Positions 2,508 through 58,128 of a stretch of DNA of 64,000 nucleotides are shown here, one piece after another. Both the position numbers and the translations under genes were made by a program. This stretch comes from Cirrosporium novae-zelandiae. Taxonomy: Eukaryota. The DNA lies in assembly GCA_026023565.1 (NCBI GenBank), contig JAPETS010000033.1, positions 186,001 through 250,000 on the forward strand, given 5' to 3'. Positions within the stretch are counted from its first letter, which is position 1; each line of letters begins with the position of its first letter. The notes under the pieces are model-generated. The model did not search any database. It was not told the DNA's origin and worked only from the letters and a program-made list of their open reading frames with translations.

Positions 2508-5262
2508 CTGAGTGAGGGGACACACTCGTGATGTTTTTAAGCAAGAGACGGGAAATAATTAGAGAATGAAAGAGAATGGCGGGCGAGGTAGAGCTGCTGG
2601 GACTCCACTTTTGATGGGTTCAGGTTAATCATTATTTTGCAAATAACTATAGAGAGTATTATATGTATGAGAAAAAATAATCAATGTCTGTAGGTTCAAG
2701 CATTGGGGAGTATTTGGTAGTCATGTCGAGATAGATAGACTGAAGTCATTTGATTAGATTGAATCTAGCGTCGACCTCGGGTATCATTTTAGCCGTCGAC
2801 AAGCGGTAAGTAACCGCCAAGCCCATTGCTGAGAGAGTAGGTATATAGTACCTGATAAGACAGGCATTCAAGTATATATTTATTGATAAGTATTTAATAC
2901 ACAGCTTCCCCAAAAGAAATAGACTGACACTGTTGGCTATTTTATTTCCAAGCCATGTCGCATATGTATCAATTCATTCAACGTTGGGTTTTCCGATAGC
3001 TGTATCCGGGTAATATCCGGTATTCTATCATTAGCTTTTCCGGACGAACATCTCCGCTCTGTCGGCTAGGAACTATGCCAGAACGATAGCACGTGGATAG
3101 CTATCACATCATAGACATTCAATAGATAGTAGATAACTTAAAACTAAAATGGTCCATTTGCTTAATTCTAGGGTTTCAGCCCTATCGGCAACAACCAGAA
3201 ACCCTCCCCACTATGGAGATTTTTGCTAACAACTTCTTTTCGCTTTTCAGTCTATCTGATGAACGCCAGTTATCTCGATACAATAACACCAATGTGGCGA
3301 ATGCCCTTCTGTTTTCATCAATGAACTACTGTGGCTTTATCTCCTTTGATTCCAACCAGTTCTTTTGAATCTCCTAAGCTAATATGCAACTTTAATCATT
3401 TGAGTTTACTGTGACGTTACGATGAAGGGAAGTTCAATACCTACATGCAGGCACTTAACTTTAGTTTAGGGACCTGCATACCAGCACCTTCGATACCTCT
3501 CCAATAATCTATTATCCTGATCATGACCTTTCACATAAATGGTCCTGCATATTTCCGAACCCCTGGTGGCAGTTTTGCCTGCCTTACTATCGTCGCCTAC
3601 AAATACATATTATGTTATGGGTTTGGAAGCCAACTCGGGGAAGCTACCAATATTCCGTGTCAGAAGGCCAAGGGCGTCTCAACATGGACAGCCATGCTCG
3701 GAAATAAAAATAGCATCGATTGTTCATCAACGACGCAAGAGAAAGGGAGAGAGATCTCAATGGGATCAAACAGACGAGAAACAGAGAGCATTGGTGGACG
3801 GGGAGGGAGATGATACTTGACTAAATGTAATTGATCGTCGCTCCCAGCAAGCTACCAGCAACCAAGAAAGGTATTCTCCAACAATTCTCAAATACCCCCC
3901 ACCCTCCCCCATCCAAGCATATACGTTCCTCCCCAAAAATTCCAAATCTCAGTCCCGAGATCTCCACCATGGCTTGAACGTCTAAACGTGATGGAACATT
4001 AAACACAAATTTTAAACTCCCTATCTATTCGGATCTACCTTCGCACCCTTTCTTTTAGGGATAATACAGGGTGGGGACGTTATTCTTGGGAGATATTATA
4101 CTTGGGCATATACGTATAGATAGATACGTTGATTTGAAAAAAGCAGAGAGAAAGGGAGTTATCGGTGAGGTATGGAAGGGCTAGAAACATTAAAGAAGAA
4201 GTATGATGGTGGTATGAAAATTGGCACAACCTACTTTTCCAGCCTCTGCTCAGTCTTAATTTAAGGATAGGAGCAGCTCAAGGAGACACTATCCTAATAG
4301 CATTTGTCTTAACTTCTAAGTTCATCATTCCACTCCCCAAATTCTATCCCAACTCGACTCCTTATGACATACATACATTAATGAAACCAAGCAATTATTA
4401 TATACCATTGATTCCATCTATCTAACCCATGAATTTGTTCCTCATACCTTCCACACCAGCCAGCTAAAACCATCATTCCAAGCCCTTCGCCCTAAAACCA
4501 AGCTACTGAATAAACCCACCATGCTATAACTAATTATGTACAGTACCTTGCAAGTTATCCATACAATCCCACACTTTCCCCTTCCCTCTCCCACTAGGTA
4601 GGTATAATACAAAACTCGTACACTCCTTAAACTCAAGCTTAAAATAGTAAAATGTTCAATAGAAAGAGAGAGAGAGAGATCATATTGCAGTTTATTCAGA
4701 GGGCATGACAGGGAAGAAATCTCATTAGGATATATGACGCTAATAGCGTATTTATATAAGATTGGATTAGACCTTGGGTAATCAAGGTCTGGTCGGCCTG
4801 GTACGTCAGACCCCATCTATTTAGTTCTGGTCTATTCCCTTTCGCTGCTTTCTGTTAATTACTGTCAAGGAATAAGCCAAGCCTAAACCCCTAGACCAAA
4901 AGGACGTGGTTTACCCGCCAGGTAGACATGAGAAGTACAGGTATAAAGTTAAAAACAAACAGCGAAATTTTAAATATTGAGCTTTACTAGGTAACTAACA
5001 TAGGTCTGCTACCCCGCATTGGTACTGCTATGCTGTAGTAGTGAGAACTCGTGGAACTGAAGATCAAATATTATTTGATCTAATGTACATACAGTACGTT
5101 CTCGCTAAGCGAGAAAAGAAGCGCCCAATATCATCAAGAACTTCGGGTCTAGATTTACAAGGATTTAAGCCTTGGCCAACTTCAGCTAAGAAAACCATCT
5201 GCACTTCTTCCTGTGCATTGTAGCATCTATCACCAATTCTCGTATCTGATATAATCCCCTTC

Positions 5263-8200
5263 ATGTGCTTATTAAGAATAAACAAAAAGCGGGGGGGATG
5301 GCGAAGGCGAGCGGATGCCTCAAACACTTCGTCAGTCCCTGGCACACCCTTGACGGCTCAAGCAAATGAGGATAGGTCTGCATCGGCTTTGATGACCCAG
5401 ACAAACGAGGATGGGCCTGGGTCTGGAAGTCATCCAAGTGTATATCGTCCACCGGCCTTGAAAGATAAAGTAAATGCTAATCGGGGAATGCAACAGGCTC
5501 CCCAAACAAAAGACCAATCTCATAAAAGCCTCTGGGACCTTGCGTACGAGGATTTGCGTAATCAAAAAGACGGCCCCAAGCTTATTGAACGCTTTGAAAA
5601 AATATTGAATGATCAATCCAAAACCAAACAGACGACAATAACCCTGGGCAATGAAGACACGGCGACGAAGGAGGATCAAATGTCAGCACTGGTTAACAAA
5701 CAGCTTAAGAACATGAACGAGGAGAAGTGGAGGATCAAATTAATCGGCAAGGTTGTCGAGGTCAGGGAACAAGTCGACCGGGTAGTAAGCGTTGTGCGGG
5801 CTGTTAAAGAGTTTATTTCTCCATTCGCAGGCATCGACCCAATTCATGCTGGTTTACCCTTGGCTGGAGTATGCATATTGCTTTCTGTGAGTGAATCAAA
5901 GTCTCTCGATTTAATACCATTGAAGCTGACCACCATGACCGCAGCTCCTAGTGAACGATAGTCAAGAGCGCGCTGATGCGATTTATGGGCTTGAATACAT
6001 TACAGAATTGGTTCGTCGCTTTGCCGCAATTGAATACATATACTTGCAAGATGAAGAGTGCACGTATAAAGAAGAGCTTGAGGTTGTGGTGATAAAACTC
6101 TACAGCCAGATACTGGAATATGAAACCAGAGCGGCATGCCAATTCGATCGGAATACGGCCCTTCAAGTAGCGAGAAATGTTTTCAAAGCTGATGACTGGA
6201 AGGAGATTCTTGAGAAAATCAAGGAGTCAGAGGAGGCTTGTGATAAGCGCATCCGAACAATCGATGCTGGAGACCAGCGAACACGCGCAAAACGGTTAGA
6301 GAATACCCTCGAGAAACAGAATTGCGATATTTTAACGCAGCTCAAGTTGTCTCAAATACAATATGGAGAACTATTAAAGACTATCCAAGAAGGACAGAAA
6401 GAACAGGAAGAATGGGTCAAGGCTAAGGACGAGATGGATTGCCTTAAGGTCTTTCGGACGAGCACCTATGAGGATACTATGGAGAAGAATCCAGACCATG
6501 TACCTGGAACCTGCGAATGGTTCGTGCGGCATTCAAGATACCGCGAATGGCTGAATGGACCCGCATCAAATTTGCTTTGGGTAACGGCGGATCCAGGGTG
6601 TGGCAAGTCTGTTTTATCAAAATTCTTGATCAATAGCTACAAGAGCGAGAGACAAAAAGATACATCCAATACATCCATTTGCTATTTCTTCTTCAAGGAC
6701 GATAGCGATGAAAACAAGAGTGCAGCTCACGCTCTCTGCGCAATTTTGCACCAGCTCTTTGAACAGAATCCCGCATTATTAAAGCATGCCATGCCCCACT
6801 ACAAAAGAAACGACGGAATGCTCTGTCAGCTGCTCCAAATTCTCTGGGAAATCCTCATGGATGCTGCGGTAGATCCTAACAATGGTAATATTGTCTGCGT
6901 CATCGATGCCCTTGACGAGTGCGCTGAATCGAGCTGTGGAACACTCATCAACTGCTTGGCAAAATTTTACTCAACCGTGATGAATACGGCTACAAGGATC
7001 AAGTTCCTTATCACTAGTCGCCAAAATCCCTTCCTCGAACAAGTGTTCACCGAAAGATTTCAAGATCCGGCATCCCTTAGATTGATGGGAGAGAACGAAA
7101 GTGAGATGGAAGAAATATGTGTCGAGATTAATTTGGTCATTGAAGCGAAGGTGAAGGAATTTCAAGAGTTGAGATTGAAATATGGAATCCACGATGATGC
7201 GCACATCGCCGTCCAAAAGCAACTCAAAGGTATTGAAAATCGAACTTATCTTTGGGTGGCGCTTATCCTCCCTGAATTGAGAAAAATGGCTAAATATCCG
7301 GAGCATAAATTGTTAAAAACTATCAAAAACATACCATCGTCCGTTTCTGAAGCTTATGAAAGGATCTTAGAGAATAGCTACGACAAAGATATGGCTAGAA
7401 AACTGCTTCAAATTGTCTGTACGGCTATTCGACCTCTCACACTCGTGGAGATGAACTGGGCGCTATCGATCAACGAAGATGATTCCGTGGCTGAGTTATT
7501 TCCTCTACAATCATTTCCGGGTATAGTCAGAGACATCTGTGGGCTTTTTATCAGCATACAGCATTCAAAGATTTACCTCATCCATCAAACAGCAAAGGAG
7601 TTCTTGATTTGTGAAAACGTTAAGGAGTCTACTAATTCCACGGGGGATTGTTGGAAACATTTTCTCAAGCCAGCCGAGTCGAACCTCGTTCTCGCAAAAA
7701 TATGTATTTCGTACCTCTTGCAGCCCGAATTTGAAAACGATCCTTTAATTGTGGATGGCAAGCTCGAATATAAGAAAGCTAAAACATGCACAGAAGAATA
7801 CGCAAATAAACACGGCTTTCTTCTTTATTCAGCAGAACACTGGGCCACTCATTTTCGAGAAGCTGAAATTAAGGAGATAGAAACATGTTCATCAGTCATG
7901 GATCTTTACGATATTCAATCCAAGCGTTTTGTGACATGGTTTCAAGTATACCGGATGGCTGCCGTTGGTTGGTACTATGGATTCCCTCATAATTTTACCG
8001 ATCTTATAGTAGGATCGTATTTCGGACACGAAGTGATCGTGAAGCTATTACTTATGAGACCCACCGAATTAGAATATAAAGACGATTTTGGAAATACGCC
8101 ACTGCTGTGGGCGGTACAAAAAAAACATGAAGCGGTTGTGAAATTGCTGCTAGAAAAAAGCGCCAATCCAGAATCCAAAGATAAATTTGGCCAGACACCG

Positions 8201-9994
8201 TTATTGTGGGCGACAAAAAAAAGATATGAAACGGTTGTAAAATTATTACTAAAAAAAGGCGCTAATCTAGAATCTAAAAACGGTGATTATGGCGGAACAC
8301 CATTGTCGGCGGCTGCAGAATGTGGGCATGAAGCGGTCGTGAGATTGCTGCTGGAGAAAGGCGCCAATCCAGAATCCAAAGATGAATTTGGCCAGACACC
8401 GTTATCGTGGGCGGCACGAAACGGGCAGAAGAGGGTCGTGAAATTGCTGCTAGAAAAAAACGTCAATCTAGAATCTAAAGATGAATCTAGCCGGACACCA
8501 TTATCATGGGCTGCAGGATATGGGTATAAAACGGTCGTGAAATTGCTGCTAGAAAAAGGCGCCAATCCAGAATCCAAAGATGAATCTGGCCGGACACCGT
8601 TATTGTGGATAGCAGGGGCAATAGATTTGGAAATAGATGAAGATATATGGATAACAGAAAAAGAACGGGAGAATACGGTAAAATTTTTATTAGAAAAAGG
8701 CGCCAATCCAGAATCCAAAGATGAATCTGGCCGGACACCGTTATCGTGGGCGGCAGAATATGGATATAAAACGGCCGTGAAATTGCTGCTGGAAAAAAGC
8801 GCTAATTTAGAATCTAAAGATAATTTTGGCCGGACACCGTTATCGTACGCTGCAGAAAAAGGGCAGGAGAGAATCGTGAAATTTCTGCTAGAAAAAAGCG
8901 CCAATCCAGAATCCAAAGATAAATTTGACAAGACACCGTTATCGTGGGCGGCACAAAAAGGATATGAAACGGTTGTAAAATTGTTACTAGAAAAAGGCGC
9001 CAATCTAGAATCCAAAGATAATTATAACGAAACACCGTTATCGTGGGCTGCAAAATATGGGCATGAAACGGTCGTGAAATTGCTGCTGGAGAAAGGCGCC
9101 AATCTAGAATTCAAAAATGAATTTGGCCGGACACCGTTATCGCAGGCGGCACAAAAAGGACATGAAGCGGTCGTGAAATTGCTGCTAGAAAAAGGCGCCA
9201 ATCTAGAATCCAAAGATGAATCTGGCCGGACACCGTTATCGCGGGCGGCAGAAGAAGGATGTGAAGCGGTTGTAAAATTGTTACTAGAAAAAGGCGCCAA
9301 TCTAGAATCCAAAGATAATTATAACGAAACACCGTTATCGTGGGCTGCAAAATATGGGCATGAAACGGTCGTGAAATTGCTGCTGGAAAAAAGCGCCAAT
9401 CCAGAATCCAAAAGTGGATTTGGCCAGACACCGTTATCGTGGGCGGCAGAAAAAGGATATGAAACGGTTGTAAAATTATTACTAGAAAAAGGCGCCAATC
9501 TAGAATCTAAAGACGATAATTATAGCGGAATACCGTTGTCGGCGGCTGCAGAATGTGGGCATGAAGCGGTCGTGAGATTGCTGCTGGAGAAAGGCGCCAA
9601 TCTAGAATTCAAAGATGAATTTGGCCGGACACCGTTATCGTGGGCTGCAGGATATGGGCATGAAGCGGTCGTGAGATTGCTGCTGGAGAAAGGCGCCAAT
9701 CTAGAATTCAAAAATAAATTCGGCCGGACACCGTTGTCATGGGCTGCAGGATATGGGCATGAAGCGGTCGTGAGATTGCTGCTGGAAAAAGGCGCCAATA
9801 TAGAATCCAAGGATAATTTTGGCCGGACACCGTTGTCGTGGGCTGCAGGATATGGGCATGAAGCGGTCATAAAATTATTTCTCCAGAAAGGTGCAAAGTT
9901 AGAAGCTGATTCTGGTCGGACACCGCTATCGCGGGCTATAGAAAAAGGGCACGAGGAGATTGTGAAATTACTCACCCCTACACCAGACTCCTAA
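5263..9994 (+). CDS. Fungal NLR-like protein: N-terminal NACHT-associated domain, NACHT NTPase, ~19-20 ankyrin repeats
   Basis: SLWDLAYEDL N-terminal motif, Walker A ADPGCGKS, Walker B CVIDALDEC, YLIHQTAKEFL, then repeated GxTPLSWAA..GHE.VVKLLLEKGA. Intron 5887-5944 (GTGAGT..CTGAC..CAG). Start codon uncertain. Confidence 0.92.
8075..9975 (+). repeat. Tandem ~99-bp ankyrin-coding repeats with high nucleotide identity
   Basis: Recurring units such as gaaaaaggcgccaatctagaatccaaagat and ggccggacaccgttatcgtgggc at ~99-bp spacing. Confidence 0.95.
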
Positions 9995-11995
9995 TCCACA
10001 ATACTCGTCCTTACTCCCCATCTCCACGGTCCTTATTGTCGAATACCATAAAGACCCGATCGCGTTGGATTCCCAAAAGCGCTAGTGATTGGTCACGACT
10101 AGTATCATCCTTTCATATGTAAAATTCTCTTTCTTTCGGAGTCTAGGGGATAGCGCAACCGTGATGGACCTGAGCTTATCTCTCCATTCTTCAGTTATCC
10201 GTTCTGTGTCTTGATCTTTCATATCTGCTAGCTATTCATCCAAGTCAAAGTCTTAGGCGAGGAGATGAGGGAGAGAGCAGAAGCATAGCAAGGAAAAATG
10301 CAAGGGGCAAAGATTGACAAAGGGTTTTCATATTTCGATAGTTAGGTAATGTGAAGGAGTTCTGATTTTAGACATAAGGATCTAGTGTCAAGCAGTAAGC
10401 CAACACCCTTACCTATCCAAGCTGAAAGAACATGGAGTACCCATTGCCTTGGACGGATTTACCCACCATAAAGGTCATATAGCCTAGCCATGCCGTAACA
10501 TCTAGCTAGCTATAGATATAAAAGTGAGAGTGTCAAGGCGTAGCCCACAATGCTCCTTACCTAAGACAAGAGGTGTTGGGCGTAGTCGAACCAAGGGTTG
10601 GATTATGGTGGTCGTTTTGAGTCAGTTGGTAGTGCAGTTGTTAAGCCTGGCGCCCTCTCGGCCTTAACAGATATGAAGTGAAAGAGAAGTGAAGTAATGA
10701 TGAAGTCCTCCTCGGGCATGCGATATTCAAACGCGGAATCAAGGCTGTAGATAAGATAAACAAAACAAAAAGTACAAGTAAGATTGAAAAGGTGGGGATG
10801 CGGAATGTGAAAAATCCCATCTTTCTCGTCCTCGGTCAGGATATGTAAAGAGAATCAAGTGGGTAGGTTGAAAAGGGGTAAAGGTTGGGAGGCTGAGAGG
10901 TTGACAGATAGGTATTGTTAGTCTGAGGCGTGTCCATCTTACCTTAGACTGATGGTCTTAGGCAGACAAATAATTGACAACTCACATGATATCTGATAGT
11001 TATCCATCTGAGCAAACTATGAGAGCCTCAACTACCTAGGTAGGTAGGAGAGAAGATGGAATGGTGAGAGAGAGAGAGAGGTAGGGCACGGCACACCACA
11101 TCATAAACAAGCACGAGATAGTAAACATTGATGAAGCCCTTCTACTTTCGATTTCTATTGTCACGTAAAAGGGAATTTGGGCAAGAGAAGTTCTAGAGAG
11201 GAAGCATGGAAATGGTTGGATAGTAATGGTGTAAGGATACGCGACGCGTGCAGGGAAGCGCGTTATGGATACGCGTAACTAGGGAGATAGAGAAGGTCAT
11301 CATACTTACTATGCAGCGATCAGCTAAGGAAGGGAAATTGATCCTATCCTATGGAGAAGGACAGCTTTCAAGCATATATTACGACATGATTCTAATATTA
11401 AACATCAGTATCTACCGATAGTAGATATCCAGGGGGTCGACGAGCTGAAGAAGAACAACTCAAAGGCGCTATTCTAAAAGAGTATTAGTGCTATATGTAT
11501 CGGCCGAGGGGAAACTCTCCGCTTCCTTCACCAACCCACTCGCTCACTCCTCCTACCAATTATATACATCCCACAGCAGCTTCCACCTCGTAATTACGAC
11601 TAGCCGACTCGGATATTATTCTTAGAACCGAACATGATCCTTCGCATTTGCAAATCATTGCCTGCCGGTCTTTTTTTTCTACCCGGCACAGATCGACCGA
11701 ATTTCAACGGGCCTCGGTTTTAGGGCTTCGGTTCCGAACTTCTTTGTTGGACCCGATCTACAATACAATGTTGATGGATTTATTTCTCCGTCTCTTGCTC
11801 TCTCGGTGTATATATATGTCTACTATCTCGAGGTTTGAGGGAGATCTGTACAAGTTCATCTGCAAACAGTTTATTCATTGAATTATTTCGACAAATCTAT
11901 TTCATATTCCCATCTTCATATCTCATCATCAAAACCCTCTTCATAACTAAATCCATACCAACCTTCATACCCAACTTCAAATCTCTACTCAAACC

Positions 11996-47452: not shown

Positions 47453-50400
47453 TTATATCCCAAATGCTCTTTGCAAAAAGCCTAATAATCCTATTAGATC
47501 ACCCTTTTTAATCCCGTGAGCTTTGAACAGCTTTACCAAATCATGGTGTCCGTTGTCCTGTGCAAGCCAGAGCGGCGTGTGCCCATATTTGTCCTTTAGG
47601 TTAATCCTAGCTCCCACCTTGACCAACAGAGTAGCGACTTCCAAGTTTCCGGCGAGACTGGCAATATGAAGAGGTGTATGCTTGTCCAGGTCTTCTGCAT
47701 TGACATCGGCCCCGTGCGCTAGTAAGGCTTTTACTACGCCTACGTTTCCGCCATGGGCTGCACCGTGCAGTGCAGTATTGTAGCGAGTGTTCTTTGCTCT
47801 CGCATTGGCACCTTTCTCCAGCAGCTTTTCCACTACCTGTGTGTTTCCTACAACGGCAGCCGTGATAAGCGGCGAATTTCTTTCGCGGTCTTCCACATCG
47901 ACGTTAACTCCGTGCTCTAGTAAGGCTTTTACTGCGCCTACGTTTCCGCCATAGGCTGCACCGTGCAGTGCAGTCTTGTAGTGAATGTTCCTTGCTCCCG
48001 CATTGGCACCTTTCTCCAGCAGCTTTTCCACTACCTGTGTGTTTCCTACAGCGGCAGCCGTGATAAGCGGGGAATTTTTTTCCTTGTCTTGAGCATTGAT
48101 ATCGGGGGTATAATTTAGCAGAAGCTCTACCATCTCTAGGGCTTTGGGTTGACGCGCTATGATATGGAGACAAGTTGTGCCGTGAATGTCGGTAATGTTG
48201 ACATTCGCATTATTCTCAATGAGGAGTTTTGTCATTGCTGCATTTTGACGGTTCACTGCGAGTAGTAATGGCACCGTTTGTTTGGGATCGTTGATGTGTT
48301 TGTTAACGTCAAATCCTTTTTTTAGGAGCAGCGAAGCAATCTCGAGTTGGCCAACAACGACTGCTAGATGTAATGCAGTGGCACCGCTGACATCCATTAC
48401 ATTAGAATCGATTTTGCCTCTTAATAATTCTTCCACTGTTTGTGGATGACGGACAGTTACCGCTAGGTGAAGTGCCGTAGCACGGTCATTTGATGTTTGA
48501 CAGAGGTTGACTTGGGCATCTCGTTGGATAAGCAACCTAACAACGTCCTTCCTGCCTTGATTAGCCGCATGATGAAGGGCTGTATTTCCAAGCCACGAAT
48601 CTCGAGTGTCGATGTCAACACCCTTGTCCAATAGCAATCTTACAACTCTCTCGTGTCCTTGGCCAGCAGCAATATGCAAGGGGGCTAGCCTAGCATCATT
48701 ATGTGGAGAAAGATTGATATCTGGATGTTTAAGAAGTACCGCAGCTACTTCCTCGCTTGCCCAAAAGGCAGCCACGTGTAGAGGTGTATTTTTTAAGTTG
48801 TCAAGCGCGTTGACATCAGCGCCTTTCTCCAGTAGAAATTTCGCTGCAGACCGGAAGCCGCGTCGAGCTGCGATGTGCAAGGCGGTCACACTGCTATTCC
48901 CATCATGAACATTGGTGTCGGCGCTTTGATCCACAAGAAGCTGCATAACTGCCTCATTGCCATTCTGAATGGCTAGATGCAGGGGTGTGGAACCCATCGC
49001 TATTGCATTGACATCGAATCCATATTTGAGCAAGTCTTGAGCAATATCAGAACTGCCTTGACGTGCAGCAATATGGAGAGCCTTGGTGTAGGACCCCAGT
49101 GAAGTTTGGCAATCCTCTGTTGGTTCACTCAAGCTTGCCCATCTCCTAAGCCATAATCTTGTGTCAGACTGGTCCTCTCGGGTGACAGCTCGTACAATTC
49201 CATTTCGGATATCTGTAATAGTGATGTTATCTATGTGGACATCGTCTGCACTTAGTAATCAGCTAGTGTTCCGTTCAGAAGGCTTGGTCTAGATCTTTTT
49301 ACCTCGATCTACTGGCTTTGCTTGTGTTAACCCTGCAAGATCAGGGATCGGTATCGTTACTTCCACACTCTCGTCGCACTTTGCACAATAGTATATATAT
49401 CCATCTTCTGGATCGTTGCATTGTTGAATCTTACGAAGTAATTCGATGGCGGTTAGGCGGTCCTCAGGGTTCCGAAGAAGTAGCTCTTTGGTCCACAACC
49501 ACGGAAATTTATCGTGTCTAGATTCAAGCTTCTCCATCCACAAATTGTAAGCATTTTGGTTTTGTCGTGGATTCCGGCCTTTAGACCCAGTACTTTCGAA
49601 GAAATTCTTTCTTTTATCGATAGTTTCCTCTTTCAAGACAGTCTAGGAGAAGGAAATATGTAAGTGTTGCCCCAACAAGAACTTTCAGGAACAGGAGGGA
49701 GAAATACTAGCATGTCCAAAAATATGCATCCCAAGGACCACATGTCTGCAGCTGATCCACGAGGCTGCTCTGCGGCAACCTCGGGTGCCATGTAATTTAT
49801 ACTCCTATCTCCCATCAACCCTTCTGTCTTGCTCTTCGATTTATCGGTCCAGTCGTACGCTAGACCGAAGTCGGTGATATAGACTACGCGGTCCCTGATC
49901 AAAATATTTCCGGGTTTAATATCTTTGTGGCGACAAGCCTGGCGGTGGAGGTATTCAATGCCGGATGTTATGCATCCAAAGAACCGGCGAATACATTGCA
50001 ACTCCATTCGCGAAAAACTCGGTTTATCCAGGTATACTTTCAGGTCACACTGTGCAACCGGTAGCAGAAGAATTCCAAAATACTGTGGATCTGTATACGA
50101 GCTAAAAGATATTAGCATGGAAACTCTTTGTCAGCTAAAGCTAGACATACCCAATATACTTGACAAGGTGGTGGTGAGATAACCTCTTCAAATTTTGAAA
50201 CTCGTTTCTGAAGGATTCTTCGTCACTCGTAGATCCGTCAAATTTCTTCCTACGTAGGATTGTTTTCCGCTATATGAATTATTAATAGACATCTGAGTAA
50301 ACGACAGGCTCACTAACAGCATAGGTATCATATGACAGGTTGCTTCTCACTTCTTCAACCATGCCAAACCCCCCTCGCCCTAACTCATTGACGATTTGGA

Positions 50401-50825
50401 AGTTCGTATCTGCATTATTTGCTGTGACATGTCAGCGCCAAAAATAATATTATCCCCACCCACGGCTTAATACCTAGATGAGCATGTGAACCTTTCTCCA
50501 TCTTTTCTGCATCAGTTAAAACAAAAGCCTGACTTTTGAGAAAGTTGTGCCTATAAGTTGGGCCTCTAACAAATAATGGTAGTGAGAAGGCGTCGTATGG
50601 AAGCCCGATATCGAATAGGCCTTTTTCAACAAACATGCCCATTAGCTCCTTTTCTTTACCTATCATTCGCAAAACGGAGTAAGTTCTTGGTCGAGCGCTC
50701 CATGAGTTCTTTTCCATCTGGGTCAAGAGATCTCTGATCTTTTCGATATCATTATCGGGAAAGTAAAGTGCTCTCTCTTTCAGGCGAGTGAAGATAAGAG
50801 ACATTTGGTGTTCGAGCCCTTCCAT
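47453..50825 (-). CDS. Ser/Thr protein kinase fused to ~15-16 C-terminal ankyrin repeats
   Basis: LGRGGFG, ARK, HKDIKPGN, DFG, YMAPE and ADMWSLG spread over short exons. Intron 49246-49302 (GTAAAA..CTAAG..CAG) joins the kinase in frame to ankyrin ORF 47453..49132. An upstream exon is possible. Confidence 0.85.
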
Positions 50826-51684
50826 GACTGATGTTTGTTCTAAATCTTATTAGTAGGCTATATGGGAGCAGATCAGCTTGCGTACCGTTCATTGTTATCC
50901 CGGTTCTCGGAACTTTGGACCGGGTTATGGACTTCGTTGTTTGAGCCTGCGGAGTTGAACGCTAGAGGAATTGATATATATAGCTCCAAAATCTTGAAGG
51001 GGCTTCTTTATAGTACATCAGACACGGAAGATATTTTCTCGCGAATTGATCTTCCAACAAACTCTTTGCTAGAAGGGGGGAGTTCAATAGGATTATGAGA
51101 TAATACAGAGTGTGTGTGAATCTCCTGAAGTTACGTAGTTGTGAAGAATGAAAATCTCTCTCCTAATCCCTCAAAAAGACCATTGCAAGTATACTGTATA
51201 AAGAAAAAAAGAAAGCTTAGACACAATTGAATAGATTTAAGAACATTTAGCCGCTTCGGCTTGGGATATAAGTACATAGAAGGCGGGACGGACGCCATGT
51301 AATCTTTTTTGGTTGTAGCCTGATGTGGCTCAATGTAATCATTAAGGCTATGCTTAGTTAATCCTTGAATTATTTAAAAAACCAGAAATTAATGGTGAAA
51401 ATTGACCTCATCGCTACCGTTAGCAAGGGGGGCAGAAGGTTATAGCTTGGCACAGGAGTCTTTTAGGGTCGCATTGGGTATTGATCCCAACTACCTAGGT
51501 ATACGCTCGGCCCTTTAATGCCAACCTACCACATGGTTGAACTTCAATTAGACTATAGAGCGTTGGAAGTGAAGCTGCATGTACTTAACGCCACGATGAC
51601 ACTTCATCATACACCTTAAATGCAGCCTGCATCGCAAATTTGAGATTTAGAATAACTCCTGGTAGTGTTGGCCAAATACGATGT

Positions 51685-51895
51685 CCCCTAAAGCGTCTTC
51701 CAATGGCTACCACTAGTAGGGATGTTATGTAAGGATTATGGTAGGTCAGATAACTATTTTCAGGCAGAGTTAAATATCAAGTTCTTTGCTGAATTATATT
51801 GAGCCTCAAGATCTTATCATTGGACTTATTGATCCTCCAGTTTTACCCCCTCCCCCCCCCCTATTAGTGGTAGCCATTGGAAGACGCTTTAGGGG
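51685..51895. repeat. 31-bp perfect inverted repeat with ~150-bp spacer (MITE-like)
   Basis: cccctaaagcgtcttccaatggctaccacta at 51685-51715 and its reverse complement at 51865-51895. Confidence 0.9.
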
Positions 51896-53539
51896 GTAAG
51901 GAATAGATATAGAACCTGACAACTCAAGCTGCGACTAATAGTAGTTCAGGCTTGCGTCAAGCGTAAGCATGCTACGTAAGAACTTTTATAACTGCGGCTC
52001 TTTTGCAAAATAAACTTTTAAGTAGTATTTCATATCTTATACCCTAGCTTGCACATTAATTGTCTTCTCACACGTAGCCTACACCCCCAGGACTGCAACT
52101 ACACTCTTACAAGAGTCGTGTTATAGGGTGGCTGCAAGTGTACACTTCTTAGGGCGCCCCAAGCCTGCGGCTTCACCGTTTTCTCCTTGTATAGGTAACC
52201 AGTGTTAGGCGTAATCGAACTGACAGCTCGGTTTAGCTTAACGCCTTGCTTTAACAACGTTGACATTGAGGTCCGTGTGGGGATATACAGGGGCTTTAGA
52301 TAATTCGTGGGGGATATGCACGGACAGTAATGTACTAAGTACACTAACTACATTGAATTGCGACTACACTATTATATAATAAAATTGATCTTATCATCGC
52401 TTTTTAATTAAAATAAATATAAACAAAATTTTCGTTAAATATATTTTTATTATAAGGCACCTAGGTTGTATATCCTAATACTTTGTATCCGTTTAAATAG
52501 CATGTCCTTTTGGTTTATTTAGGTAAGAGTGTTGGTTTGCTGTTACGGTAACTAGGATTATAACACTAGGGTTCTAGCCTTAACGTAGCTTGGGCGCCAC
52601 ACTTTTAGAGAGCTTCAGCCCAACAATCAAGCGTATTACCATCAAACAGTAAGACCCTTCAGTAGGTGCTTTTGGACTTGCCTTCTCACAATTTTGCTAT
52701 ATCTTTGAAATATATACTTTACTAACATTATTGACGTCTCAAAATTTTGTCTATGCTAAGCATACAAGGTTTTAATGGATCCACGTATATGCCAACACTG
52801 TAAAGGGGCTTGGTGGCATAATGCATTTTGAAAGTAGACTGTCGATCTACCAACCACTTTCCAGCTTTTGCAAGTCTAGCATCAGTCGCCGAGCGTCGGA
52901 CACCGAGGGAACGATCATCACATTTTACCTACTACTAGCTCACAAGACTGAGGTTGAATTGAAGATTGTGAAATCATGTGATATAGTATAGTATTTGTGT
53001 CCTTTAGGCTTGGTGTCTCCGGGTATAATAAATTATTACCATTCCCAACTTTAAGAAGTGTATGGAAGTACGCTACGCACTGATTCTCTAAGAGGTATTA
53101 AGTAGCCCGAGTATCTAGCTATCTCACCCGGGATTTAAAACTAATGAAAGAAATTAACTGTTATTTGTGGAAGGGACAAATCAATATGGAAGATTGTTTA
53201 TTTAATTTATGACCGAGCAGTGAATAGTTTATATAAGGGGAATATAAGGGGCGCGCGAACACGCATTCGATGCCTGGTCACCTGATTTTGCTGTGCCTGA
53301 GGCATTGTAACATCATTGCCTAAGGCGAGCCGTTTAGTCCCTCACGAGGTGGCGCAAGTAATGCATATGCAGCTATCTCAAAGTGGAGAAGCTACTCGGC
53401 AAATTATAAGCAGATGGCTAGTTTTAAAATTCATAACAGTTCTAACTTTTATACAAGTTGGGAGAATTATGTTCAGGCCCGTTCTTTTGAGAAATTTATA
53501 ATTCTAATATTGAAAGTCTAAAGAGGGATCGAACTCGTG

Positions 53540-55254
53540 ATGGACGTTGTTGGGTCTGTGGTAACCATCCTGACTCTGGCGCAAACAGTCATTTCGATAT
53601 GCATCAAAGTACGCGCAACATGCAAATCGAATTCTGGCTTTGATACCGTATTTGATTCAGCTATTCTTGGTGCTGAAGTTCAGGTTCAACGGCTCGTCAG
53701 TTGGAGCTCGTCTTTTCGTGCCGAGTCTTGTTCCGACCCTTTGCGCGACCTCCTGGGTCGTGTTCTCCAGACTGTAGAAGTGGAGATCAAAACGATCCAT
53801 GGGTACATAGAGAAGTATATGCCCGGAAGTGATAACCCACTGAGTAGCCTATCTATTGAGGAGCGTTTAGATGTTTCATCCTTGCCAACACAAAAACAGA
53901 CTCAATTTGACGATCTAGGCAATACATCTATCAAGAAAAAAGGACCATCGATAATCAACAGATTTCATTATGTGATTTCTGACAAAGATAGGTAGGTTTA
54001 TTATCTCGAACCGGGTAGAAGTTAAAGGTTTCTCGTGACTGACTAGAATATAAAGGCTACTGTCGCATTCGGCAGCGCTCGAGAAGGCCGTCGATCAACT
54101 TCATGCGCTCCTGCCTGCAAATAGGCAGTTGACGCTTGAGCTCAAGTTCCTTGCAAGCTTGTTAAAAACTGATGATATCGATGAACTCAGTGCTATCGCA
54201 TCCTCTACTGGTAGTCATTCATACCAGAATATCCAGTCAAGCGCATCAATTAAGGCTGCCCGAATCAGAGGAGAAATCCTTCCGCGTTCTACGAACAGGA
54301 TGTCCAAATTATTAGACTGCAATCGGCAGGGTTTTAGTCTCGAGAGACGCTGGGAAGGGAAGGATATCGGAACGTATGAAGGGAGGAAAGTTCTCGTGGA
54401 GTGGAAAACATGCACTGATGAGCTTTCGGTTGAGGAATCCACACATCGAATTGCTGATGTTGCGCGACTACTTCATCAAACAGGTGTTACTAGGCCAAAG
54501 GATCTCATAGCTCTGGATTGTTTGGGCTACATGAAGAAGCCACCATCCATTGGACTTGTATATGCACTACCCCTCACATATTCCGAAAGACTCCCCAAAA
54601 GTCTCTTCAAACTTCTCTTAGACAAGGAGAGTGACCCAAGCACATGGCCGTCATGGGAGCAGAGGCAGAAGCTGGCTTGGGTTTTAGCTCGGGCAGTCTT
54701 CCAGCTCCACGTTGTTGGTTGGCTTCACAAAGGCATTCGACCACAGAATATAATGTTCATTGGTGACGGGAAATCTTTAAAATCGCCTTATCTGATTGGT
54801 TTTGACTATGCAAGGAGAGGAGAATATGGAGAAAAAACCGAATCAACAGATCCGGCTTTCGATTTATATCGACATCCCTTTGCACAAGGCGAAGCTCGAT
54901 CAAAGTAAGCCTTGATTAAACTTTGACACTCAAAACTCATAATTTGACTCCATTTTTAGGTTTCAAGCATCTTTTGATCTCTTCGCTCTTGGGCTTATAC
55001 TCCTAGAGATTGGGATTTGGGGCAGCCTCCAGGATCAACGTCAACCATTGGAGAATGAGTTTAAGGGCTCAAGCCAAGATGCGCAGACTAAATTTCATTG
55101 GCTGCTGATGGAAGGAAAGGGACCGTTAAAGCACTTGCCATTCTATATGGGAAACAAGTATTATGATGCCGTCAAGACTTGTCTTTCCATTGATCCTGCA
55201 GATCTTACTGAAGATGTGTATATAACAGATATCATTGCGAATCTGGAGAGCTGA
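53540..55254 (+). CDS. HeLo-domain plus pseudokinase protein (MLKL-like architecture), 3 exons
   Basis: Hydrophobic N-terminal helix, QRLVSW and RFHYVISDKDR..DQLHALLP (HeLo-type). Kinase-like VLVEWK, WLHKGIRPQNI, LIGFDYAR, LYRHP and DLFALGLILLEIG. Introns ~53991-54055 and 54905-54959. Confidence 0.8.
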
Positions 55255-56236: not shown

Positions 56237-58128
56237 CTATTTAATCACTCTCTTAACACACCCCCCAATCACCCCCTTCGTCCCCTCAACAGGAACCCAC
56301 TCACCAATTCCCGCCTCCTTCGGTGCCGTCTTAACGCCCCTCCCCCCACCTCCCAAAATCAGATTCCCAGGTCGATATTGCTCCTGGGCCAGCATGCGAC
56401 GGATAGCAGAATTATGAATCCAGGCACTGTCGGGGATATCTCGGACCTCGCCTTTGGGTAAGGGCCAGCGGATAGGTTTCCAGGACCCGTTGGGCTGCAG
56501 GTCCATGCGCCGGAAGGGTAGGTATTCCATTAGGTTCCAGGCCATCACGGAGAGCGGGGAGAGGCTGCAGCCGAAGGCGAGGCTGTCGTGCATGTTAGAT
56601 GTTGTGGTTGCAATGGCTAGGGGGCAGCTGGAGGGGGGCGATGAGGGGTCTGGTGGGGGTGGATGGAGGTAGGGGTGGGGGTTTTGTGTATCGGTGGTGG
56701 TCATTGTGGATAATGAGTCATCAATAAGGCAACCCATTGCTTCTATTTTGGCTTTGTCGAAGCGGAGGCCAGCTTTTTCTGCTTCTGTCACCATCCACAC
56801 GAGGGGGATGTGGCATAGGGCATATTTTTCCCCAGGGGAGAGATGCCATCCTCCGCCAATGTCGCCGTGGCAGCCTGAGAACCAGACTTCCTGGATGTCT
56901 TGCGTGAGTTCGCTCTCTTCTTTTGGGTGTATGGAGGAAGCGTCGTCTCCGGAGAGGTCTTTTGGGGAAGGCTTGAGGAGACGGCTACGGTCGTCGTCGC
57001 TGCGAAGAGATGGTATGAGGTTGTGTTTGATAGGGTAGCGACGGCGGAAGCGACCGTATTTCAAGCTTTGCTCTTGTTCGGCGTCGTTGTCGTCTTCTAG
57101 GGTGGTGGAAGTTGCTTCCCGCTCAAGAACGCTTCTGTGTGGCTCGGCTCCACTGCTTGTGCCATTCCCATTCGCCCCGGTGCCATTCACTCCGTTGTCA
57201 TTTGCTTCTGTCGTGTGGTCTTGATTATGGTGGCCATGACCCTTTGCGTGATGACCCTTTTTTTTAGTTTTATTCTCAGATATCAAGTCTTGTCTGAATT
57301 TAGCTCGGCGCTCGTCGATACTGACAGCGTGTCTAATTACTTCCGCAGAGCTCTTTGCTGTATAAGGAAACTTGCTTCGTTCCATCCAGGCCGACTCAAA
57401 ACGAGGAACGCTGTTGACAGTGTCAAACAACCCAAGAAATTTGATGGGTTCTATAGGCCGACTAAAGGTTTCTCGGAAAGCCGTCATGTATCTGAAGAGC
57501 CTTTTCTTTTCCTTTTTTTCTTCTTTGGTCCCGCCTAGCCGCTGTTGCCACTGGGCAAAGGTTCTCCAGGCAAATTGGCAGAGCTCTTCGTTACCTGCGC
57601 TAAGTAATCCAATGTAATCGAGCATTTCAGCGAGAAAGCGAGCAATATATGCTCCACGGCTAAAGCCAAAAAAGTAGATGTCGTCACCAGTACAATAGAA
57701 CCGCATCAGAAATCGATATCCTGCCATGACATGCTGGTCAAAGGAAGTGCCAATGGCAGAATCCTTTGCTTCTATGAAATAAGATTTCACCTTGGAAAGG
57801 ATGCTGTCATCAGAGAGGCCTGGAGAGGTAACATAGGTGCCAATTCCAGGTTGGTAATAGTGAAATTGGTTATTATCCTCTCTGTCAAGCATGCGATAAA
57901 TCTTCAGAATATTGCTGTCGTCGCCGGTGGCAGTAAGTCTACAAGGAACCATACTCAGTCTCATGGAAGATTAGAAGTGTTGAACACATCATACTTGTTT
58001 CCCGTTCCATCAAAACATAGTACAAAAGTTTTCTTTGAGCTTGTAGCATTCGACATTGCGCTTCCATTTTTCATATCCGAGACCAGAGGGTCCTGTGAAA
58101 AAGACTTATCTGGTTGATAAGAGGGCAT
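56237..58128 (-). CDS. DUF2235 alpha/beta hydrolase (Tle1 phospholipase-like catalytic domain)
   Basis: VLCFDGTGN, YYQPGIGT, FGFSRGAY, FLGLFDTVNS, RHAVSIDERR, EVWFSGCHGDIGGG. Confidence 0.9.

Follow-up and report, generated by a model that had tools for sequence, protein, structure and literature searches.

In fungi, the known trigger of HeLo proteins is amyloid templating by NOD-like receptors (NLRs), and the locus described here raises the question of whether fungi may also use the step from kinase to pseudokinase by which animal necroptosis is defined. It lies in a 64,000-nt stretch of DNA from Cirrosporium novae-zelandiae (contig JAPETS010000033.1, positions 186,001 to 250,000; the whole stretch is hereafter called the window) and consists of two divergently transcribed genes, of which gene A encodes a Ser/Thr kinase joined to a long ankyrin array and gene B a HeLo domain joined to a degenerate kinase fold (a pseudokinase). 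An earlier note, made from the sequence alone, had read the pair as a candidate fungal RIPK/MLKL-like necroptosis module, in which the ankyrins sense a ligand, the kinase phosphorylates the pseudokinase and the HeLo domain is released to kill the cell. By combining splice models, domain and structure searches and a scan of related loci in metagenomes, we found that the A-B pair is a real, conserved two-gene module, and we lean, if only modestly, towards the view that A and B work as a single unit, composed of a sensor kinase and an executioner of cell death, in which A would activate B by phosphorylation. The earlier interpretation is partly supported, namely by the genomic and structural data; the sensing of a ligand by the ankyrins, the phosphorylation of B, the release of HeLo and killing are steps that we infer by analogy with better-known systems.

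Both genes are present where they had first been placed (gene A at 47453-50892 on the minus strand, gene B at 53540-55254 on the plus strand), arranged head-to-head, and the 2.7-kb intergenic region that the earlier note had them share measures, from start codon to start codon, 2714 bp under a six-exon model of A and 2647 bp under the public model of the same gene (P0040). The divergent spacer (50893-53539) is AT-richer (GC 0.40-0.42), is presumed to contain both promoters and holds no tRNA. Within it, an inverted-repeat pair (51685-51721 and 51859-51895; 37-nt arms, 97% complementary, 137 nt apart) looks like a miniature inverted-repeat element (MITE). Gene A is the sole Pkinase gene found in the 64-kb window by a Pfam scan of 58 open reading frames (ORFs), which exclude the five that belong to genes A and B, plus P0040.

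Gene B is composed of three exons (53540-53991, 54056-54904 and 54960-55254) separated by two short introns (64 and 55 nt, both GT..AG), and its spliced product of 531 aa agrees letter for letter with database protein P0001 (a “hypothetical protein” of metagenome-assembled Cirrosporium novae-zelandiae); the window DNA is fungal. A HeLo domain (PF14479; residues 17-197, 53588-54194) was recovered from P0001 at 30.1 bits (cut-off 23.2), and because this domain spans intron 1, exon 1 taken alone has no Pfam match; the same exon had 7 matches at E <= 0.001 among 1.84 billion representatives. A profile of 20 B relatives matched, over its positions 5-202, the HeLo structures of HET-S/HET-s (2wvo, 2wvn and 2wvq) with E-values from 1.7e-19 (2wvo, HET-S) to 2.9e-18. 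Hydropathy and the AlphaFold2 (AF2) model point the same way: no 19-residue window of the protein is more hydrophobic than the one in residues 3-22 (Kyte-Doolittle 2.06), which form a helix in the model (predicted local distance difference test, pLDDT, 80.3; predicted template-modelling score, pTM, 0.80), in which a helical bundle (helices 2-30, 36-58, 66-92 and 138-168; residues 97-134 are a disordered loop) is followed by brace-like helices (three shorter helices within 172-225) and by a kinase fold from about residue 235. When this model was searched with Foldseek, full-length mouse MLKL (4btf) ranked second over 573 columns and was, among the matches listed, the only one aligned with B across two domains.

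The C-terminal half of B (residues ~235-531, 54306-55251) corresponds to a pseudokinase domain, assigned from its kinase fold (the match to BRAF, 6u2h_D, had a Z of 20.8 and a root-mean-square deviation, rmsd, of 3.1 over 255 aa), from Pfam family DUF7580 (PF24476; 29.5 bits against a cut-off of 27, residues 332-512) and from the conserved motif WLHK[G/S/A/N]; the Pkinase profile reached 20.6 bits, under its cut-off of 31.7. The catalytic residues are lost, as HRD is replaced by HKG (54726-54734), the glycine-rich loop (GxGxxG) is missing and GFDYAR stands in place of DFG, and across the family the Asp of DFG varies and either K or R occupies the beta3 position. Judged by these replacements, the kinase domain of B is catalytically dead. 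Since WLHK[G/S/A/N] is kept in the 20 aligned relatives and across loci, the pseudokinase is maintained and its gene is not a decaying one. As for its ancestry, the C-terminal half of the family profile has MLKL pseudokinase domains among its best solved matches (E 4e-8), with MSK1 (1.5e-8) and IRAK4 (2e-6) at similar levels. The activation segment, modelled with a pLDDT of 53-67 (consistent with a flexible loop), contains Thr412 (54837-54839), a candidate phospho-acceptor; of 19 aligned family members, 17 have Ser or Thr at this position and 13 have Glu after it.

In gene A, a helical N-terminal domain precedes an intact Ser/Thr kinase, behind which come about 15 ankyrin repeats. The public model (P0040, 1040 aa) has coding exons at 50892-50886, 50839-50474, 50421/50409-50318, 50269-50151, 50101-49708, 49642-49303 and 49245-47453, while the six-exon model spliced from the DNA (1029 aa) joins 50825-50474 and 50409-50318 to the same last four exons; the public model differs solely in its 5' micro-exon of 7 aa (50892-50886) and in an alternative acceptor lying 12 nt upstream. 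The kinase domain (49303-50409, with three introns inside) covers residues 133-400 of P0040 at 145.3 bits and has retained all of its motifs (GRGGFG, YARK, HKDIKPGN, DFG and APE), so that on sequence grounds gene A is catalytically intact. The ankyrin exon (47453-49245), in which Pfam Ank families match 15 stretches, would be the sensor part. Within it (47712-48082, minus strand) Tandem Repeats Finder located a 198-bp unit, equal to two repeats, in 1.9 copies that are 93% identical, which points to recent repeat turnover. The earlier descriptions of A as an active kinase with a long ankyrin array and of B as a HeLo-type N-terminus (including its fold) ahead of a degenerate kinase fold are both borne out by these data.

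The N-terminal domain of A (117 aa, 50475-50825) is conserved in 37 homologues and is modelled as a small helical domain (pLDDT 88.9). It belongs to no Pfam family (SAM included), gave nothing at E <= 0.001 in Foldseek and had no usable match in the protein atlas; in a VIA-wide structure search most of the top 30 rows were SAM domains, at a Z of only 4.2-6.0 (the best, 8ucy_A, with Z 6.0 and rmsd 1.9 over 61 aa), and we treat the SAM-like fold as a lead only. The A kinase family is large (285 proteins at E <= 1e-10 among 640 candidates), occurs in many ascomycetes and includes architectures with the kinase alone and with the kinase followed by ANK, TPR or UBA domains.

Whether the two genes belong together was assessed in metagenome contigs, which were scanned with two short conserved pseudokinase peptide patterns (from 9 closer sequences) and yielded 30 loci amounting to 315 kb; their 440 stop-to-stop ORFs of at least 110 aa were translated and Pfam-scanned, a procedure by which small exons are missed. 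A HeLo-type B gene was present in 19 of the 30 loci, five of which (L012, L013, L015, L021 and L022) are too short to be informative (at the end of its contig L012 shows just a convergent ankyrin ORF). At least 2 kb of flanking sequence, on one or both sides, is available in the other 14 HeLo-type loci; in 13 of them an active-kinase (Pkinase) gene directly adjoins B, as it does in all eight HeLo-type loci with both flanks. Recurring linkage in other genomes, which the earlier note had set as a test of its reading, is hence what these loci display. The arrangement is head-to-head in ten cases (L002, L005, L006, L009, L010, L011, L018, L019, L020 and L030) and tandem, with the kinase downstream, in three (L017, L026 and L029). 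In 10 of these 13 loci the kinase is followed by same-strand ankyrin repeats; of the other three, L010 and L020 are cut off by the contig end and L009 is decayed.

These loci are not copies of a single neighbourhood. L005/L006 and L019/L020 have matching Pfam and match tables and each pair was counted once, and two further pairs are close (L026/L029, 96%; L005/L010, 85%); taken together, the loci represent about nine lineages, between which identity is 15-40% for the A kinases and 13-58% for the B proteins. The other flanking genes differ in every locus (e.g., RhoGEF and MUS81 in L002, a sugar transporter and a hydrolase in L005, an aminotransferase and an AAA protein in L018). An internal control is given by the PF00069 ORFs of the 315 kb: the 14 that lie outside B-like genes all directly adjoin such a gene, and the only other kinase-family match in the 30 loci is a FunK1-type gene situated 9 kb away in L011. 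In L009 the pair has decayed as a whole: the reading frame of the kinase (8041-8850, minus strand) is broken by frameshifts and HYV has replaced HxD, with loss of the catalytic Asp, and the B gene (9188-10954, plus strand) is interrupted by in-frame stops, although a single frame of it still aligns to the L011 protein at 47% identity. The breakage of both partners is consistent with joint decay.

Several observations weigh against, or limit, the view of A and B as one functional unit. The locus sample covers one part of the B family and stems from one pattern search in metagenomes, and linkage was counted from the B side only. L014, the sole exception among the 14, shows no kinase in its 3.5 kb of downstream sequence but lacks the upstream side, and L008, which has DUF7580 with no HeLo detected, lacks a kinase neighbour within ~8 kb. 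The neighbouring kinases fall into two very different subfamilies, one with H[RK]D and the N-terminal domain (in the window, L002 and L018) and the other with HGD or HCD and without that domain (elsewhere); because of this split, the pairing may have arisen more than once, or the N-terminal domain may not be essential. Co-divergence of A and B, high by Pearson correlation (r 0.81, Mantel p 0.0006), is driven by near-duplicates and is not significant by rank (Spearman 0.08). The spacer of the window is much longer than those of the other loci (2.7 kb against 131-1052 bp), possibly on account of the MITE-like inverted repeat inside it. Finally, the A kinase shares with RIPK1/3 no more than the general kinase fold, so that the resemblance to necroptosis is architectural only.

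The working model that we derive from these data is that of a phosphorylation-controlled cell-death switch which probably resembles animal necroptosis. The hydrophobic N-terminal HeLo helix of B would attack membranes, being held in check, via the brace-like helices, by the catalytically dead pseudokinase. The ankyrin array of A would bind or monitor a ligand, in a role like that of the repeat domains of fungal NLRs and of gasdermin-controlling proteases, and upon sensing A would become active, perhaps clustered through its SAM-like N-terminal domain. A would then phosphorylate the conserved Ser/Thr in the activation segment of B (Thr412), the pseudokinase would change its conformation, and the HeLo domain, once freed, would permeabilise the cell. 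Much of this is proposed by analogy: that the partners bind, which residue is phosphorylated, that control is by activation, what the trigger is and that the outcome is lethal.

Control could also run the opposite way, with the kinase as a brake. In such a guard or antidote arrangement, A would hold the HeLo-pseudokinase off (by constitutive phosphorylation or by binding) and inhibition, degradation or titration of the kinase, for instance by a pathogen effector binding to the ankyrins, would bring on death; tight linkage and a common promoter region would see to it that no cell inherits or expresses the killer without the brake. This reading can draw on the same linkage data, on the head-to-head orientation and short spacers (131-1052 bp), which suit co-expression, and on the decay of both partners in L009, and the sequence does not tell which sign the control has. 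Still, phosphorylation of the activation loop activates MLKL, and the three tandem loci indicate that a shared promoter is not required; we regard a braking kinase as unlikely.

A different role for the pseudokinase is brought up by genes in which DUF7580 sits behind an active kinase (HHD..N, DFG, APE) with no HeLo domain. Such fusions, recognised by Pfam and motifs, were found in L003 (8507-10855), L004 (6564-8855), L007 (1409-3673) and L025 (8525-10960), as well as in L023, L024 and the database proteins P0007, P0027 and P0038; that of L003 is itself head-to-head with a kinase-TPR_10/12 gene (6737-3721). Since DUF7580 occurs in them without HeLo, it would have a kinase-linked role that is independent of HeLo. 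Their kinases share with the neighbour kinases a generic similarity only (~25%), and, as read from sequence, the fusions support a link at the level of the domain only. On this evidence the pair could regulate a kinase without killing: the DUF7580 pseudokinase would be an allosteric partner or scaffold of the kinase (a role that pseudokinases have for several kinases), the HeLo domain would only bring the complex to the membrane, and the output would be the phosphorylation of other substrates. Against this stand the HET-S type of the HeLo domain (E 1.7e-19) and the retention of its hydrophobic N-terminal helix, which in HET-S is the membrane-damaging element according to a 2025 review (PMC12881547), and a non-killing output seems to us distinctly unlikely.

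The trigger, too, may be of another kind. The module could be the same and serve allorecognition (heterokaryon incompatibility), with polymorphic ankyrins of one strain recognising a polymorphic partner of another after fusion. The 198-bp two-repeat duplication (93% identity) would suit this reading, as repeat turnover of this kind is seen in fungal het and NLR genes, and so would the HET-domain gene near the pair in L006 and the NLRs present in the window and in L017. One duplication is nevertheless weak evidence, and the proposal, improbable as we judge it, concerns the trigger only and is compatible with activation of B by A. Chance adjacency, or mere co-regulation of unrelated genes, could draw on the long, MITE-bearing spacer of the window and on the commonness of kinases and ankyrin proteins in fungi, but it is close to refuted, and hardly credible, given a pairing repeated in 13 of 14 informative loci at 15-40% identity amid different surrounding genes, and given that every one of the 14 non-B Pkinase ORFs in the 315 kb directly adjoins B.

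If A does activate B, the closest parallel in animals would be the RIPK3-MLKL pathway. The two systems are alike in that the executioner combines a bundle that attacks membranes (for B, by analogy) with brace helices and a C-terminal pseudokinase, that a separate active Ser/Thr kinase is presumed to act upstream, and that the activation segment of the pseudokinase has a conserved Ser/Thr. They differ in that the A kinase is not a RIPK or TKL relative, has no RHIM and carries ankyrins and a SAM-like N-terminal domain, in that the bundle of B is a HeLo domain of the HET-S type, and in that the A and B genes are physically linked, which to our knowledge those of animal RIPK3 and MLKL are not. The nearest solved relatives of the catalytic core of A (among the best 60 matches) include PDK1, PLK, CDK, Snf1 and GCN2 and no RIPK, and the label “RIPK-like” used in the earlier note therefore survives as an analogy only. 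A RHIM has a core of the form [IV]Q[IVLC]G or GxQxG, and a search with these patterns found it in neither P0040 nor P0001. Pfam gives only Pkinase and Ank families on P0040, with no NACHT or NB-ARC match, and both results fit the view that no NLR or amyloid relay is involved.

Among fungal systems, the same review describes sensor and executioner genes as often clustered (e.g., NLR/HET-S and protease/gasdermin), with more than 80% of the fungal gasdermin genes clustered with a protease gene (PMC12881547). In the NWD2/HET-S and PNT1/HELLP clusters, a sensor gene with C-terminal repeats adjoins a HeLo or HeLo-like executioner gene, just as A adjoins B (PMC12881547); unlike those sensors, A has neither a nucleotide-binding oligomerisation (NOD) domain nor an amyloid motif, B ends in a pseudokinase and not in a prion-forming domain, and the signal proposed to pass between them is phosphorylation, not amyloid templating. 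With the gasdermin-protease clusters the pair shares a non-NLR enzyme that is fused to repeats (ANK, TPR or WD40) and adjoins its presumed target, a pore-former, but the enzyme of A is a kinase, B is a HeLo-pseudokinase, and activation would be a reversible modification instead of cleavage. MLKL homologues exist in fungi and plants according to another source (PMC11476962), and such MLKL-like proteins (HeLo or HELL plus kinase or pseudokinase) have the same architecture as gene B; in the literature consulted, no upstream kinase or gene neighbour is named for them, and relative to that the A-B pairing is new.

Other genes of the window were annotated with Pfam. At 5224-9991 (plus strand, two ORFs) lies an NLR-type gene composed of NACHT_N, an NPHP3_N P-loop, a winged helix and a long ankyrin array (Ank_2, 508 bits); as NACHT_N is the N-terminal domain of NWD NACHT-NTPases, it constitutes a second immune-type gene in the window. 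Near the pairs of the related loci we also noted an NPHP3_N-ankyrin NLR (L017, 1412-5944, minus strand) and a HET-domain gene (L006, 12619-15027, minus strand), and the immune-type genes of these two loci hint at a clustering similar to that of defence islands. A gene with the catalytic domain of a type VI secretion system (T6SS) Tle1-like phospholipase (PF09994, 294 bits; 56240-57970, minus strand) is convergent with B, ~1 kb from its stop codon. It was considered as a member of the module and rejected: as PF09994 matches occur next to the B relatives in none of the 30 loci, it probably lies outside the module. Further downstream, animal-haem-peroxidase ORFs followed by a cytochrome P450 ORF (60492-63628, plus strand) resemble what we take to be a fungal fatty-acid oxygenase (Ppo-type) gene.

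The HeLo-kinase architecture has already been mentioned in the literature, and the new element is its conserved pairing with a kinase-ankyrin gene: neither a description of such a conserved neighbour of HeLo-pseudokinase genes nor any mention of “DUF7580” was found in the literature searched (subscription journals and supplements lay outside its scope). The 2025 review calls for a broader exploration of fungal HeLo and four-helix-bundle (4HB) proteins (PMC12881547). As a more tentative extension, for which we would not claim even odds, the pair may exemplify a widespread, old, NLR-independent and phosphorylation-driven death pathway of filamentous ascomycetes, in which a linked, repeat-bearing sensor kinase would activate an MLKL-like HeLo-pseudokinase via its activation-loop Ser/Thr, as a counterpart of RIPK3-MLKL built with an unrelated kinase; DUF7580 would then be a “receiver” pseudokinase for partner kinases, fused either to a kinase or to a HeLo killer, and the SAM-like N-terminal domain would cluster A as RHIM does in animals. 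The pair supplies a concrete candidate for the missing upstream kinase, together with a candidate phospho-site, and with its two genes is compact enough to be transferred to yeast or Podospora. It would also offer the first functional context for DUF7580, and would add to the NLR/HeLo and protease/gasdermin clusters a third kind of clustered fungal unit composed of a sensor and an executioner.

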